Shown: positions 2,801 through 8,861, counted from the first letter of the stretch. The stretch: DNA of 64,000 nucleotides from an uncultured Spirochaetota bacterium (GCA_963768055.1 CAVYGN010000002.1:544001-608000); one strand, 5' to 3'. Numbers and translations: made by a program. The notes: a model not told the origin generated them from the sequence alone.

Positions 2801-3997
2801 TTGTTTAAAACCATTATAAATAGATTTACCAGCCTCCCCAGGGATTTTTTATTATTTATCTTCGCCATTTCGGTATTCAGCTTCGCACAGGGCATTGTCG
2901 ATTCAACTCTTAATAATTTTCTATATGAGACATTCAAAATATCATTTTTCCAGAGGGGCATGATCGAACTGCCCAGGGAAACGCCTGGATTTCTCGTCGT
3001 ATTTTTATCCGCCCTCCTGTTTTTTTTATGCAACAGGAGGCTTGCAGCCCTTGCAAACCTGATCGCCGGCCTTGGTATATTGTTAATCGGTTATTTTACC
3101 CGCAGTTTCAACTCCATGCTTGTTTTTTTATTTATCTTCAGTGTGGGACAGCATATTTTCCTTCCCCTTAATTCCGGAATTGGAATGGAACTGGCCCTCG
3201 AGGGAAGAACGGGAAGACGTCTCGGGCAGCTTAACGGCGCGGGAAATCTGTTCGGCATATTCGGAAGTTTCGTTATTTTTATCGGTTTCAAATATTTTCA
3301 TTTCGATTTCAAGGTTTCATTTCTAATCGCATCCATCGGTTTTATATGCGCCGGATCCTTCATCTATTTGATGAAGCGGAATAAACCCCTTCCGGTAAAA
3401 ACAAAATTCAGGCTGAGAAAGGAATATACGCTATTTTACTGGCTTAATATATTATACGGAACCAGAAAACAGATATTCCTTACATTCGCGCCCTGGGTCC
3501 TGGTATCGGTATTTTTCCAGAAAACATACGTCATCGGAATTTTACTTACTATAGGCGGCTTGATCGGCATCCTTTTTAAACCCTTGCTAGGCACCCTGAT
3601 CGACAGGCGCGGAGAAAGGTTCGTGCTTGCTGGAGAGGCGGTGATCCTGATTTTCGTGTGTTTTTTTTACGGGTTTTCAAAAATACTATTCAAACTTGAA
3701 ACCGCGATGTATATCTCTTTCGCCTGCTATGTTATCGACTATTTATTGATGTCCGTCACAATGGCAAGGGCCACATATCTGAAAAAGATAGCATTAAAAG
3801 AAGAAGACGTCTCCCAGACACTCACGATGGGAGTTTCAATTGATCATATGTTCTCGATCATCATAGCCGTATCGGGCGGGATAATCTGGCAATTCCTGGG
3901 CTACCAGTATATATTCCTGATCGGAAGCTGCATTGCGGCGATCAACCTCGTGTCGGTGCAGTTTATTAGGACAAAAGGTTATGAAATAACCGTTTAG
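2801..3997 (+). CDS. MFS transporter
   Basis: About 12 hydrophobic segments in 398 aa; GTLIDRRGER MFS loop motif. Confidence 0.85.
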   Translation: MFKTIINRFTSLPRDFLLFIFAISVFSFAQGIVDSTLNNFLYETFKISFFQRGMIELPRETPGFLVVFLSALLFFLCNRRLAALANLIAGLGILLIGYFTRSFNSMLVFLFIFSVGQHIFLPLNSGIGMELALEGRTGRRLGQLNGAGNLFGIFGSFVIFIGFKYFHFDFKVSFLIASIGFICAGSFIYLMKRNKPLPVKTKFRLRKEYTLFYWLNILYGTRKQIFLTFAPWVLVSVFFQKTYVIGILLTIGGLIGILFKPLLGTLIDRRGERFVLAGEAVILIFVCFFYGFSKILFKLETAMYISFACYVIDYLLMSVTMARATYLKKIALKEEDVSQTLTMGVSIDHMFSIIIAVSGGIIWQFLGYQYIFLIGSCIAAINLVSVQFIRTKGYEITV

Positions 3998-4065
3998 GGA
4001 TCACCACAGAGGCGCAAAGATCGCAAAGAGGAACAGAACGCAAAGTGTGCGGAGGTCGCAAAAAA
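3998..4065 (+). repeat. Left CGCAAAG-type periodic repeat flanking the dGTPase cassette
   Basis: GGATCACCACAGAGGCGCAAAGATCGCAAAG...CGCAAAG...CGCAAA; an inverted counterpart lies at 8797-8861. Confidence 0.75.
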
Positions 4066-4209
4066 TTTCAAGACTTCGAAATAAAATCCTTATCGCTTGA
4101 ATATTTTTTTCATTTTCTTTATTATATTTTAATATTTTGTTAATTTGTTTATACTAAATCACAGTCAACTATAGCAATTAGAATAGAATGAATGTAATAG
4201 GAGAAAACA

Positions 4210-5646
4210 ATGTATGAAAATTTATTTAAAGAAACAAGATTAAGAGAACCAAATAATTTGCGAGATCCAACAACAATTCATGATATATTTTTTGAAGAAA
4301 CCGAAAGTGACCGTGTTAGAATACTCTATTCAAGTCCATTCAGACATTTACAAAATAAAGCTCAGGTTTTTTCGCTTGAAGATAATCCTGACGTTCGTTC
4401 AAGGTTAACACATTCTTTAGAAGTCTAAAACATTGGAAGAAAGATTGCTTTAAAAGTGACTAACAAATTAATGGATAATAAATATTTGATTCCTTTTGTA
4501 AATATAGTAGAAAATTCATGTTTAATACATGATATTGGAAATCCTCCCTTCGGTCACTTTGGTGAAACCGCAATAAAAAAATGGTTTGAAGATAACTGGG
4601 GAAAATATGACATTCCATTGAATTCAGAGGAATTAACTTATTTTAAAAACAAAAATTTCTTAAATGATTTTCTATATTTTGATGGTAATCCTCAAGGAAT
4701 GAGAATAGTAATTCATTTACAAGAAGCATATCCAAATCATGATGATTTAGGATTTAATTTAACTTGCACACAATTATTAGCATCTCTTAAATATTTACGA
4801 TCAACAGATGAAGAATTTGAAGATAAAAAAATTTAAAAAAATATGGTTATTTTATAACCGAAAAAGAAAAAATTGATTTGGCAAGGAAAAAATTGAATTT
4901 CGGATCTGATAGGCGTTTTCCATTATCATATATAATAGAGGCTGCTGATGATATTTCTTACTGCTTGAGTGATATTGAAGATGGTATTGAAAAAGATCTT
5001 GTGAATTTTGAAGCTTTTTATAACCTTTTGTTAAAAACAGAGAATACTGAAATTTTGAAAGAGCTTAATGTTTATGAGAATCTTAATAAAAAAACTTAGT
5101 AATCCTGAGAAATTTTTTAATTTCAAAACATCTTTAGTTAAATCTTTAATAGAAAATTCAGCAAATCTATATTATCATAATCATGAAGAATTTTATAACG
5201 GCAAAAGACCGAATTTTTTTGAAGAAAGTTCTTGTGAATCAAAGATTCTTGATTTATTAAAAAAATTTTCAAGAATTAATTTATTCAGATCACCAGAAGC
5301 GGAAAATAAAGAATTAGCCGGACATAAAATTATTTCCGGAATTCTTGCTGCATATAAACCTTTACTAAGTATGAAATACAATGATTTTAAAATTTTGAAC
5401 GATGCAAAAATAAAATCAGAAGTGATTGGCAAAAAAGGATTGGATTATGAGTGGCGCCTATTTAATAAATTACCCGCAAAATATCTCTCGGCTTATGAGA
5501 AAAATGTTGATCAAAACATTAGTATGGAAGGAAAGCATGCATTAGAATTGTTTTTAAGAGCACATCTTATTGTTGATTATATAGCAGGAATGACTGACAA
5601 TAAAGCCTTAGAAATTTATCATTTACTTCAAGGAGTTGACTTTTAA
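4210..5646 (+). pseudogene. dgt: dGTP triphosphohydrolase (HD-family dGTPase), disrupted
   Basis: Four ORF pieces join into one protein of about 477 aa carrying FRHLQNKAQVF, RSRLTHSLEV, HDIGNPPFGHFGE, FDGNPQG, EAADDISY..DIEDG and DYIAGMTD. There is an in-frame TAA at 4426-4428 and frameshifts in A-tracts near 4825-4841 and 5088-5094. Confidence 0.9.
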
Positions 5647-5888
5647 TGGACTCTTACAATACTCATCCTATCACCTTGCTTATTGAATATATAAAAAACT
5701 TTTCTTTACAGCAAGCAGATTTTGAATTTAGTTGTTATATTGGTGGTGAGAGGAAAACAATAAAAAGAAGAATATTTAATTTAAAAGGTGTCGAGGACCG
5801 GGTAGATTCCCCAGTGGCAGGGCCATGAGATTCCCCACCTTTTCCTGAAAAATACCGTTCTTGATTTTAGAGAGAAATCATAAAACTT

Positions 5889-6635
5889 TCAAATAGTTTT
5901 CCCTTCCTTCCGGAAAGATTTTCCATCTTTGGATTTTACCAGGATTTTAATTGAGCCTGAAACAAGGCGGTCAAGCATAGCCCCTCCAATCACAGGATCA
6001 GGGAAGATTGCCAGCCAGTCCTCCGGAGGCCGGTTGCTTGTCAGAATAATGGACCTGTTTCCAAGCCTTTCATCGACAATCCGGTATAGGTATTCCGTTT
6101 CTTCATTGTCGAGTTTTTTAAATCCGAAATCGTCTATTATCAGGAGGTCTGTTTTAATACACTTTCTGAATAGAGTATTCTTAAACATAAGCTTTTCGCT
6201 TTTCAAGTCTTCAAGAAGAACCGCGGCTTTCTTGAAAAGAACTGTGTTTCCTCTTCTGCAGGCCTCATGGCCGACTGATTTTGCAATGCATGTTTTACCT
6301 ATGCCGGGAGGCCCGGCGATGACAACAAACTGTCTCATATCCATGAAACGGCAGGACGCGATTTCACGAATAAGCCTTGAAGGGATAGCGCTCTCATTGA
6401 AATTAAAATCAAACCCCTCGAAAGTGTTTTCCTGGCCGAACTTCGCTTCTCTCAGCCTCTTTTTGAGCATGTTATTATCCCTCTGGCATAATTCATCCTG
6501 AACTAACAAAGAGAAAAATTCTCCATAGTCCAGGTTTGATTCTTGAGCCTCCCTGATCCGCATAGGAAGGTTGAATAGCATCCCAGGAAGCTTTAACCTC
6601 CTTAAGTTTGCCTCAAGCTGATTCTGATGTTCCAT
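5889..6635 (-). CDS. istB: IS21 helper AAA+ ATPase
   Basis: Walker A GPPGIGKT, Walker B LLIIDDFG, TSNRPPEDW, AMLDRL. Confidence 0.95.
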   Translation of the reverse strand: MEHQNQLEANLRRLKLPGMLFNLPMRIREAQESNLDYGEFFSLLVQDELCQRDNNMLKKRLREAKFGQENTFEGFDFNFNESAIPSRLIREIASCRFMDMRQFVVIAGPPGIGKTCIAKSVGHEACRRGNTVLFKKAAVLLEDLKSEKLMFKNTLFRKCIKTDLLIIDDFGFKKLDNEETEYLYRIVDERLGNRSIILTSNRPPEDWLAIFPDPVIGGAMLDRLVSGSIKILVKSKDGKSFRKEGKTI

Positions 6636-6653
6636 ATTTCCTCCTCATTATCT

Positions 6654-8195
6654 CTATTGAAAGTAATAGCTGCCGTCCCTGGTCATTTCAGACCCTTCTT
6701 CTGAAATTTCAAACAGGGTGTCCTGTTTATCCTTTCCTTCATTTTCCATCCAGCTTTTGAATAGTTTGGGATCGGTTATTTTTGCCGATATTGCTCTTTC
6801 ACAGACTTTATTAAAGTATTCTTCTTTCGAGAATGTTTCCATTACACTTAAGAACCCCAGGGCCCTCCGGCAATTCAGATTAGCATGAACAGCAAGGATT
6901 TGAAAGATCAACTGGTATGCGGCTTCTCCGTATTTCCTCGACTGGTCTAATAAATACTTGGGGTATCCCCCGGATAGCATCTCCCTTGTATTCTCCGGAA
7001 AATCAGTCTTTTCATATGCTGCATGTCCTCTTGGTACGACAAATTCCCGGATAAGTTTGTACTGGAAGAAGATCTTCACTAAATTGCCGGTTCTCCTGAC
7101 AAAGACTTCCTCTCCACGATACCTGGGAGGCAGGGAATACCTCTTTTTCTCGAACTGGACAAATTGGTCCGGGTGTACCTTGGCCTTTTTCCATACGGGA
7201 GTCTTAAACCTTTCTTCAGGAAGCTTCTTAAGCAGGGGCTTCTCTATCGTTTCAAATACCTCTATTGGTTTCAAACCTGTTGTTCCATGGTTCCTCATCC
7301 CGTATTCATACCTGCACCATTCCAGAGCTTTGATGTTTAATTCCTTTAACGAGGCTCCGGGATTAAGGGCTTTAAGTTTTCTGAAAAGCTCTCTGGCAAC
7401 AGGGACCATTCTCTCTATCTTGGCTTTATCCTTTGGTTTCCTTACCCTGCAAGGATCAAGAAAAGTATTGTAATACTCCGCATAATCAGCATATGCCTGA
7501 TTATATTTAGGATCGTAAAGGTCCGGTGATATGATGCCGGTTTTCAGATTGTCCAGGGATATTCTTACAGGCACACCGCCGTAAAACTCCAGCATATCCA
7601 CATTGCTTTCAACGAATGATTCCTGGTTTTGTGAATAGACATATTGAACAAATGGCAGCCTTGAACTCGACATTATTCCGATAAAAGACTGCACGATCTT
7701 GTTGTGCCCCAGGTATTCCATTGTGCCGGCCCTGCCGTAGTCAAGCTGGATCTCCTGACCAGGGTTAGTTTCAATCCGGATGGTTTCCTTTAATTCTTTA
7801 GCTGTAAGGCCGCTCTTTATCGAGAATCTCTTGAAACTTGTATAGCTTATGTCCAGATTATGCCTTATACAGACAACTTCAAAGGCTGTCTTGGGTTTCA
7901 TTCCGTTTTTCGGGTCATTTATGAGCCCGTACAGCTCATCTTTATATCGTTCAAGTATGCTTGCCTTATTTTCATTTTTTGGAGGCCCTACAAAGGGGCG
8001 TTTCAGATGGAATTCTTCCCGGCTTATTGTTTCTCCCGCCTTTTCAAAGCCGTAATCGATAATTTTTTGAATCGCTAGTCGGACTGTTTTCCTATCCCTG
8101 TTTTCCTGTTCGGAAATTTCACTTATGCTTTGATCGGCTTTCCATCGTCTGTAAATGTCATAGTAATCCTGTTCGTTCATAAATCTGTACCCCAT
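6654..8195 (-). CDS. istA: IS21 DDE transposase
   Basis: N-terminal HTH, ETNPGQEIQLDYG, GGVP..ISLDNLKT, PKDKAKIER, YSLP. Confidence 0.95.
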   Translation of the reverse strand: MGYRFMNEQDYYDIYRRWKADQSISEISEQENRDRKTVRLAIQKIIDYGFEKAGETISREEFHLKRPFVGPPKNENKASILERYKDELYGLINDPKNGMKPKTAFEVVCIRHNLDISYTSFKRFSIKSGLTAKELKETIRIETNPGQEIQLDYGRAGTMEYLGHNKIVQSFIGIMSSSRLPFVQYVYSQNQESFVESNVDMLEFYGGVPVRISLDNLKTGIISPDLYDPKYNQAYADYAEYYNTFLDPCRVRKPKDKAKIERMVPVARELFRKLKALNPGASLKELNIKALEWCRYEYGMRNHGTTGLKPIEVFETIEKPLLKKLPEERFKTPVWKKAKVHPDQFVQFEKKRYSLPPRYRGEEVFVRRTGNLVKIFFQYKLIREFVVPRGHAAYEKTDFPENTREMLSGGYPKYLLDQSRKYGEAAYQLIFQILAVHANLNCRRALGFLSVMETFSKEEYFNKVCERAISAKITDPKLFKSWMENEGKDKQDTLFEISEEGSEMTRDGSYYFQ

Positions 8196-8796
8196 CCATT
8201 CCCCTCCGGTTTTTTCCGGAGAGTATGTTTGATTTTTTAGATTCTGAACAGGAAAAGGTGGGTGGGGAATCTCATGGCCCTATTTTGCCTTTTTACTGGG
8301 GAATCTGGGTGGCCCCGGACAAAAAGGAGAACAAATCAATATTCGTTGGCTTAAAACCATATTAAATTCGTTAGAAAAAAATGAGGAATTGGCCTTTCAT
8401 TCCTGTATATTAAAAGATAATGAATATTTATTTTTTCCTCTGATTGATTTTTGGGGGGAAGATTTTTTGAATGCAATAAAAGATCTAAAATTAAATCCGG
8501 AATTATTACATTTATATAAATCAGGTAGGTCTTATCATGGTTATTATTATAAACTTCTCAATAAAAATGATTGGGAAAAATTTTTAGGAAAACTTCTTTT
8601 ATTTAATCCTTTCGACTATAAACTTGAGCCATATGTGGATTTTAGATGGGTTGGGTATTCTTTGGAAAATGGTTATAGCGCTTTAAGGTGGAATAATAAT
8701 TCTTCAAGATATATTTCATATCCATTTTTATTTAATTTTAAAAATTTTTAACATTTTAAACTAAATAGTGAGGACATGTTTTTAAACAAACACACC

Positions 8797-8861
8797 ACTG
8801 CGGTCTTTGCATTCTTTGCGCCTTTATCCACACTGTGCACTTTGCGTCTTTGCGGTGATCC
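8797..8861 (-). repeat. Right (inverted) CGCAAAG-type periodic repeat flanking the dGTPase cassette
   Basis: The reverse complement of 8840-8861, GGATCACCGCAAAGACGCAAAG, matches 3998-4019 at 19/22 positions. Confidence 0.75.

Follow-up and report, generated by a model that had tools for sequence, protein, structure and literature searches.

The DNA analyzed here, hereafter the window, is a stretch of 64,000 nucleotides from an uncultured Spirochaetota bacterium (GCA_963768055.1 CAVYGN010000002.1:544001-608000). Its positions 4210-8751 are best explained as the relic of a horizontally acquired two-gene operon, composed of a dGTPase gene and the gene of a small protein with an archaeo-eukaryotic primase (AEP) fold, both of which are inactivated in this copy. 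In other genomes, the pairing of a dGTPase with a protein of the Pfam family PF24387 forms a widespread and apparently undescribed operon. On balance, we lean toward the view that the intact pair is an accessory anti-phage module depleting dGTP, in which the dGTPase would act as effector under the control of a primase-fold sensor or regulator, the window copy being an acquired operon that was inactivated.

A relic of a two-gene operon

A previous annotation made without database searches (the sequence-only reading) had proposed that six open reading frame (ORF) fragments of this region reassemble into two genes, namely an HD dGTPase of about 477 residues and a partner of about 188 residues that emerges upon removal of an IS21 insertion sequence (IS). 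Both genes were recovered, and the cassette consists of the following features:

4097..4125, + strand: promoter-like site TTGAAT-17-TATTAT upstream of the dGTPase gene, 9/12 matches, weak
4199-4203, + strand: AGGAG ribosome-binding site preceding the dGTPase start at 4210
4210..4425, + strand: dGTPase piece 1, 72 codons, followed by an in-frame TAA at 4426-4428
4429..4833, + strand: dGTPase piece 2, with the HD motif (LIHDIGNPPFGH), terminating at a frameshift in the A7 run 4825-4831
4827..5096, + strand: dGTPase piece 3, frame +2, with EAADDISY inside, terminating at a frameshift in the A7 run 5088-5094
5098..5646, + strand: dGTPase piece 4, HD-associated C-terminal domain, stop TAA at 5644-5646
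5646..5788, + strand: N-terminal part of the AEP-like gene, 47 codons plus 2 bases, its ATG overlapping the dGTPase stop (TAATG)
5789..8321, - strand: IS21-family element, 2,533 bp, with IstB at 6635-5889 and IstA at 8195-6654
8328..8751, + strand: C-terminal part of the AEP-like gene, 140 codons with all conserved motifs, stop at 8749-8751

Reassembled from the ORF listing and by direct reading, the dGTPase gene comprises about 478 codons with one nonsense codon and two frameshifts. Its four pieces match consecutive parts of the dGTPase model NF003429 (500 positions), in order positions 18-73 (E 2.6e-19, 69.4 bits), 76-215 (E 2.1e-30, 106 bits), 243-296 (E 8.9e-19, 67.7 bits) and 324-499 (E 2.7e-36, 125.5 bits), for a sum of about 369 bits and with no piece at the 405-bit cut-off. 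Neighboring pieces gathered 235.8 bits in a genome search with TIGR01353 (cut-off 152.35), and the PADLOC dGTPase model PDLC02374 matches all four (E 8.2e-15 for piece 1). According to Pfam, piece 2 holds the HD domain (E 0.0013) and piece 4 the HD_assoc domain (E 4.1e-9). The model of the Sp-dGTPase type, NF041026, yielded 46.5, 59.9, 25.9 and 21.9 bits for pieces 1 to 4 with a cut-off of 400, which is below the Dgt-type models for every piece. With one in-frame TAA and two frameshifts, an intact dGTPase reading frame is absent from the window.

The second gene begins in the stop/start overlap TAATG at 5644-5648, which is present as the sequence-only reading had claimed. Once the IS and one AAAAGG copy are taken out, 47 codons, a split Gly codon and 140 codons join into an in-frame gene of 188 codons. 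Its N-terminal part aligns with the N-termini of full-length homologues, in which HP, FS.Y and R are conserved. The interrupting element carries all the marks of the IS21 family, i.e., IstA together with IstB, end repeats and a short target duplication. It splits the AEP-like gene after codon 47, the gene resuming in frame at 8328, and is bordered by a 6-bp target duplication, AAAAGG, at 5783-5788 and 8322-8327. IstB was identified by the IstB_IS21 domain (E 5.9e-57), and the 513-residue IstA-like ORF carries a Mu-transposase C-terminal domain (E 2e-12). The IS ends TGTCGAGG...CCCGGACA were verified on 10 copies in the genome, all of them full or near-full. Since these copies are about 100% identical and have target duplications of 4-7 bp, the element is in active expansion. 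Three copies located on contig C1 are longer by about 40 nt, the additional sequence lying close to the right end.

Neither the nonsense codon nor the IS insertion is of a kind that assemblers tend to create. Both dGTPase frameshifts of the assembled sequence sit inside A7 homopolymer runs. The IS copies differ by substitutions and by indels outside homopolymers that are common to several copies, and for this reason the assembly does not look generally error-prone. Among the columns that are at least 90% conserved in homologues, the window keeps the family residue at 78/80 of those covered by a dGTPase piece and at 28/30 in the AEP-like protein, which argues for a recent inactivation. In addition, an Arg of the dGTPase that is invariant in 59/59 homologues is a His in the window copy. 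Judged from its reading frames, this copy is non-functional, both genes having been knocked out recently. The relic illustrates the loss of an accessory module through the spread of an IS21 element and slippage in homopolymers.

A primase-fold protein tied to one clade of dGTPases

The C-terminal 140 residues of the partner match PF24387 ('AEP-like, Archaeo-eukaryotic primase 1D-like') over profile positions 5-132 of 133, with an E-value of 2.5e-27 and 95.7 bits for a gathering cut-off of 27. The same match was returned by a profile search of the genome, where the family occurs once. No model matching the protein was present in PADLOC v2.0.0 (2023) or NCBIfam, the lack in PADLOC being counted as neutral. 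Homologues are stand-alone proteins of roughly 150-350 residues, mostly about 190-220, and a profile search of 1.84 billion cluster representatives gave 1,582 members at E <= 0.001, 982 at E <= 1e-10 and 277 at E <= 1e-30. The closest full-length homologue (P0001, 190 residues) was modeled with AlphaFold2 from a 29-row alignment, with a predicted local distance difference test (pLDDT) of 90.4 and a predicted template modeling score (pTM) of 0.86. This model was compared, without the use of Foldseek, with 48,161 PDB representative chains, and ranks 1-19 were all occupied by AEP-superfamily proteins. The top match was RepB' (3h25_A; Z 10.4, root-mean-square deviation 3.1, 155 of 190 residues aligned), followed by the PrimPol of cyanophage S-2L (6zp9, Z 9.0), archaeal PriS (8.7), HP0184 (8.5) and human PrimPol (7.8). 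LigD polymerase domains, poxvirus D5/E5, CAPP (7nqd, Z 6.3) and others came lower. Foldseek searches of the PDB returned PriS (E 6e-4) and RepB' (E 2e-3), and a Foldseek search of viral models agrees. Sequence identity to these structural matches is only 6-15%. The AEP palm expected by the sequence-only reading is thus borne out by the Pfam match and the homologue model, and the AEP catalytic fold of the PF24387 partner is confirmed at the level of a predicted structure.

In the classical AEP fold, motif I is made of two acidic residues (DxD or DxE; DD in RepB'). The sequence-only reading had recognized all three AEP catalytic motifs in the window protein, which carries PLIDF, SGRSYHGY and VDFRW...SALRW. 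Motif II (sGxGxH-like, with its His) and the Asp of motif III are present in the family, as SGRSYHGY and VDFRW in the window, whereas motif I holds a single acidic residue. Among 234 family members, D88 (of PxID), D157 and R173 are found in 234/234 and H123 in 233/234. The motif II-like segment has S118 in 215, G119 in 233, S121 in 232 and H123 in 233, the whole SGRSxHxY span (118-125) ranging over 215-234/234, and the motif III-like D157-x-R-W is kept in 232-234/234, with H163 in 230/234. The position following D88 is occupied by F (185), L (25), M (16) or C (4) and the next one by S, A, G or V, and neither is ever acidic. On the basis of these conserved residues, the family looks enzyme-like. 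An hhalign comparison with three Prim-Pol (PF09250) proteins placed IPMIDF on LTVIDVD and SGRSfHgY on SRGYHfY, with a non-significant E-value of 0.063. A PDB sequence search with the family profile returned a chance match only (E 0.55).

The association of the two genes was then assessed over one genome per species (185,579 species). The scan provided 111 confirmed AEP-like relatives, the best 80 loci were kept, and a dGTPase was sought near them by tblastn with the window's own dGTPase pieces. A dGTPase gene lay directly upstream on the same strand in 75/80 loci. Three of the five misses (L026, L037, L078) are contig ends within 360 nt upstream, so the pair is linked in 75/77 informative loci, two of the loci (L039 and L040) giving identical numbers and perhaps being one sequence. 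The true exceptions are L005, where the AEP-like gene follows an S8 protease/RCC1 protein gene, and L033, where it follows gcvP. This adjacency count agrees with the linkage to dGTPases anticipated by the sequence-only reading. When the AEP start was set at the first in-frame start codon, it lay -17 to +10 nt from the dGTPase stop in 67/75 loci, and the two genes overlapped by 4 nt in 35/75, with which the 1-nt stop/start overlap of the window is consistent. Carriers of the pair belong to Gamma- and Betaproteobacteria, Acidobacteriota, Bacteroidota, Myxococcota, Gemmatimonadota and other groups. A Mantel test on the divergence of the two genes gave r = 0.62, with 0/2,000 permutations as high, and r = 0.04 below 50% identity, which would indicate co-inheritance of the two genes among close relatives only. 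Complex prediction for the dGTPase (479 residues) and AEP partner (207 residues) of locus L007 yielded a score of 0.00 (mark 0.32), which constitutes no evidence either way.

A quick maximum likelihood tree (LG+G4) was built with Shimodaira-Hasegawa-like approximate likelihood ratio (SH-aLRT) support only. It included 59 of the 75 cassette dGTPases, the 16 others being broken, truncated, duplicated or of uncertain start, together with the second dGTPase copies of five cassette genomes and both additional dGTPase-family genes found in the window's genome. All 59 cassette rows group in a single clade (SH-aLRT 96). Its sister group consists of the second dGTPase copies from three Enterobacterales, presumably the E. 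coli-type dgt genes of these genomes. Four outgroup rows, including the two other dGTPases of the window's genome, are long branches. The dGTPase identity given by the sequence-only reading stands, whereas the published anti-phage Sp-dGTPase type does not apply, the cassette enzymes forming a separate clade next to E. coli-type Dgt.

Genomic setting and possible roles of the pair

In the window, the cassette is located between two convergent genes and is bordered by inverted repeats:

2801-3997, + strand: MFS transporter gene, left flank, convergent
3999..4065, + strand: left GCAAAG-rich repeat, beginning directly after the MFS stop codon, inverted partner of 8790-8860
8790..8860, - strand: right GCAAAG-rich repeat, beginning directly after the epimerase stop codon
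8865-9830, - strand: NAD-dependent epimerase/dehydratase gene, right flank, convergent

Without the IS, the cassette has a G+C content of 26.5%, versus 41.5% for the genome. Both the higher AT content and the placement between convergent genes had been pointed out in the sequence-only reading and are upheld. The 21-nt core of the GCAAAG-rich repeats occurs twice in the window, in 0 of 100 shuffles and at five places in the genome, and the repeats may have formed one intergenic palindrome, split into its two arms by the insertion of the cassette. The MFS gene has a counterpart with 76% identity in a same-genus genome, where a different gene follows it, and no empty insertion site was demonstrable in that comparison. 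Promoter-like sites in the region are no more numerous than in shuffles. The genome of the window carries two other intact dGTPase-family genes (G000:C2:715430-716338 and C2:274369-275490), whose proteins, of 348 and about 409-422 residues, are very divergent from the cassette enzyme.

The pair is accessory, patchy and mobile in its distribution. Another, better-scoring dGTPase was encoded elsewhere in 5/5 cassette genomes tested. The partner family was found in 0/4 other same-genus genomes and in 1/401 genomes of a sample of the window's phylum (0/400 others), and in 2/301 genomes of the order of an Edwardsiella genome, that genome included. Of 5,426 complete E. coli genomes, 5,050 gave a match, none of which reached at least 80% of the cassette, and the 15 best rows were matches of about 80 bp to dgt. 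The AEP-like gene was present on 1/72,556 plasmid records (a Pantoea megaplasmid) and in 0/50,697 phage records.

These counts bear on a possible role in base exclusion, as in cyanophage S-2L, in which the dGTPase would remove dGTP while the AEP enzyme incorporates a guanine analogue. S-2L is reported to couple a PrimPol with an HD dNTPase (PMC8065100; 10.1101/2021.04.30.442174). In this cyanophage, the HD dATPase DatZ removes dATP, and PrimPol then builds 2-aminoadenine DNA. Moreover, the AEP domain of the S-2L PrimPol is the third-best structural match to the partner. However, the cassette is chromosomal and bacterial, with no copy among the phage records and four viral-contig copies that lack a dGTPase; no gene for the synthesis of a modified guanine nucleotide is conserved beside it, and the AEP-like protein of 190 residues comes with neither a processivity nor a helicase partner. 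We regard this explanation as very improbable.

For the neighborhoods, 35 of the 80 loci were chosen for full flanks and taxonomic spread, and two ORFs per side were scanned with Pfam and PADLOC. Matches to RecD, PolA, DbpA and ABC-F were set aside as housekeeping by judgment, as were the C-protein-like helix-turn-helix (HTH) genes of two Vibrio cassettes. Restriction-modification genes were found within two ORFs in 8/35 loci (L022, L029, L031, L014, L052, L076, L056, L044), the cassette following type I restriction-modification genes on the same strand in L031 and L056. Other defence-type neighbors were a full-length Mokosh MkoC (L029), an IetA-like gene (L046), RhuM/PDC-S05 (L061) and a PD-T4-6-like kinase (L007). 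Overall, defence-type neighbors occurred in 11/35 loci, integrases or transposases in 12/35, and either of them in 20/35. The defence-type neighborhood of the pair is suggestive; the sequence-only reading, which had looked to defence islands, is followed here as far as those 11 loci go.

Two further arrangements were observed among the neighborhoods. In two Vibrio species (L006:3884-4249 and L008:3970-4290), a C-protein-like HTH gene, matching the PADLOC 'Control_protein' model with E 1e-26 to 1e-28, immediately precedes the dGTPase gene in the same orientation, which by analogy suggests that these cassettes are under a transcriptional control resembling that of restriction-modification systems. 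In two Acinetobacter loci (L023 and L036, 6578-8167), an integrase, the cassette and a 108-residue ORF are followed by a 401-residue PfkB kinase–nucleoside 2-deoxyribosyltransferase fusion, possibly a further module of this island that targets nucleotides.

The same neighborhoods have to be considered in the light of a role outside defence, either as a nucleotide-pool and DNA-repair module (PrimPol-like repriming with dGTP tuning) or as a replication or maintenance accessory of mobile elements with a RepB'-like primase. The plasmid primase RepB' is indeed the best structural match to the AEP-like protein, integrases or transposases are within two ORFs in 12/35 loci, and 15/35 have ordinary neighbors only, e.g., AlaRS, GlnRS, PolA and NrdB. 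E. coli dgt has also been linked to genome integrity, in the discussion of a defence study (10.1101/2021.04.26.441389). Nevertheless, only the two-gene unit is conserved, and no helicase, origin-binding or other replication gene travels with it. The pair is rare, patchy and additional to another dGTPase in every genome tested, and it is nearly absent from the plasmid records and absent from the phage records cited above. In addition, the cassette is inside or beside restriction-modification operons at L031, L056, L029 and L014. Such a non-defence role is considered rather improbable.

In the anti-phage reading that we favor, infection would lead the AEP-like protein to engage phage single-stranded DNA (ssDNA) and/or to make a short oligonucleotide. 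Either of these would then fill the effector site for ssDNA that has been described in E. coli Dgt, and occupancy of this site would switch on dGTP hydrolysis. In published work, dGTPases defend by dGTP depletion (10.1101/2021.04.26.441389), and hydrolysis by E. coli Dgt is stimulated by ssDNA, to which the enzyme binds tightly (PMC9478638). A more specific version, in which the AEP-fold protein is a minimal primase whose phage-triggered short oligonucleotide loads the allosteric ssDNA site of the dGTPase as an immune signal, appears unlikely to us. If it were true, E. coli Dgt would owe its ssDNA effector site, a puzzle for a long time, to a former partnership whose primase-fold subunit was lost in that lineage. 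Besides, T7 Gp1.2 is reported to inhibit nucleic-acid-bound Dgt poorly or incompletely (PMC9478638), and the AEP-fold protein might shield the dGTPase from Gp1.2-like phage inhibitors.

Several points weigh against the anti-phage reading. The defence role and the direction of regulation are both what we infer. Close homologues of E. coli dgt are reported not to be preferentially located in defence islands (10.1101/2021.04.26.441389). The counts of defence neighbors are raw figures with no background rate beside them, obtained on 35 loci picked from 80, and no defence or mobility gene was present within two ORFs at the 15 loci with ordinary neighbors. Motif I has only its first Asp, and the classical two-metal primase chemistry is therefore not assured from the sequences. 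No fused dGTPase-AEP protein was found among 7,998 scored longer-protein candidates, which is weak evidence. Finally, the AEP-like gene stands alone at L005, L033 and on 4/4 IMG/VR viral contigs holding the family, which counts against an activator role because an obligate activator of a cognate dGTPase is not expected alone.

The viral contigs (L098-L101) carry a solitary PF24387 gene and no dGTPase. In L099, the gene is two ORFs from a Lar restriction-alleviation gene, and in L098 it lies inside an array of seven DUF285-type ORFs. These genes are possibly phage counter-defence copies. Decayed cassettes other than that of the window were found at L004, L010, L029, L032, L034 and L069, some of which may be assembly errors. 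At L029 (Phytobacter massiliensis), two pieces of the dGTPase remain, with stops, and the AEP ORF measures only 147 residues; this cassette has the full-length Mokosh MkoC gene on one side and a type I restriction-modification system on the other.

Such copies raise the question of a toxin-antitoxin-like arrangement, in which the dGTPase would be a growth-arresting effector held back by the AEP-fold protein until infection, the solitary phage copies acting as Gp1.2-like anti-defence inhibitors. A small second gene translationally coupled to the effector would fit this arrangement, as would the viral contigs, none of which has a dGTPase and one of which places the gene near Lar. The same is true of the lesions, since the dGTPase is broken in 6/6 decayed cassettes and in the window, and the AEP gene is never the sole lesion among the 75 loci. 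However, most lesions are expected by chance in the dGTPase gene, which exceeds the AEP gene in length by a factor of about 2.5, and several broken cassettes come from metagenome-assembled genomes or old drafts, in which frameshifts may be errors. Besides, IMG/VR contigs can contain host DNA, and the invariant Asp, His and Arg residues of the partner resemble those of an enzyme, a feature for which a pure binding inhibitor has no need. Taken together, this arrangement is possible and, in our view, doubtful.

Relation to known systems

No description of the dGTPase-AEP pair was found in the main text of open-access papers and bioRxiv preprints, which agrees with the statement of the sequence-only reading that the pairing is not known as a characterized system. 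In the same literature, 'PF24387' appeared in no paper found, and 'primase 1D' led to docking studies only. One candidate lead on the pair, PMC11724360, was discarded, 'dgt' having matched it through 'dGTP' only. Depletion of dGTP is an accepted anti-phage strategy, and how the dGTPases involved are switched off and on is poorly understood. Here, the Dgt-like dGTPases of an entire clade are encoded in a fixed operon together with a primase-fold protein whose family is otherwise unstudied, which makes the PF24387 protein a concrete candidate for the regulator or sensor of a dNTPase. The pairing could also explain the ssDNA effector site of E. coli Dgt.

E. coli Dgt is the closest known relative of the cassette enzyme. 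Its model NF003429 is the best curated one for all four pieces, with consecutive coverage, and the HD and HD-associated domains are shared. Second dGTPase copies found in three Enterobacterales are the sister group of the cassette enzymes, which form a clade of their own (SH-aLRT 96). Overexpressed Dgt restricts T7 lacking Gp1.2, and Dgt is ssDNA-stimulated (PMC9478638). Unlike E. coli Dgt, the cassette enzymes are accessory and patchy, and they have an AEP-fold partner that E. coli lacks.

The Sp-dGTPase type (NF041026; 'dGTPase' in PADLOC and DefenseFinder) belongs to the same superfamily, and the same logic of dGTP depletion is expected for the cassette. Some cassettes lie in type I restriction-modification operons (L031, L056), as is described for defensive dGTPases (10.1101/2021.04.26.441389). 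However, NF041026 fits the cassette pieces far worse than Dgt-type models. Sp-dGTPase itself is only 24% identical to E. coli Dgt (10.1101/2021.04.26.441389). The published systems are single-gene, whereas the cassette has a second conserved gene.

As for the partner, RepB' of plasmid RSF1010, PrimPol domains and HP0184 share with it the AEP fold, the SGRSxH motif II and the invariant Asp of motif III. PF24387 differs from them by the single Asp of motif I, with 6-15% identity, and its members are stand-alone proteins of about 190 residues, tied to a dGTPase and without helicase, zinc-finger or PriCT domain. In CRISPR-associated PrimPol (CAPP) and in the reverse transcriptase-primase fusions DRT7 and PPRT, a primase-fold domain was likewise recruited to an immune context, the match to CAPP (7nqd) having a Z of 6.3. 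Those domains either form fusions with Cas1/Cas2 or reverse transcriptases or cooperate with them, DNA synthesis being part of the mechanism, and none of them is known to be paired with a dNTPase. Compared with these systems, nucleotide-depletion defence by dGTPases was already known, and the conserved primase-fold partner is what is new.

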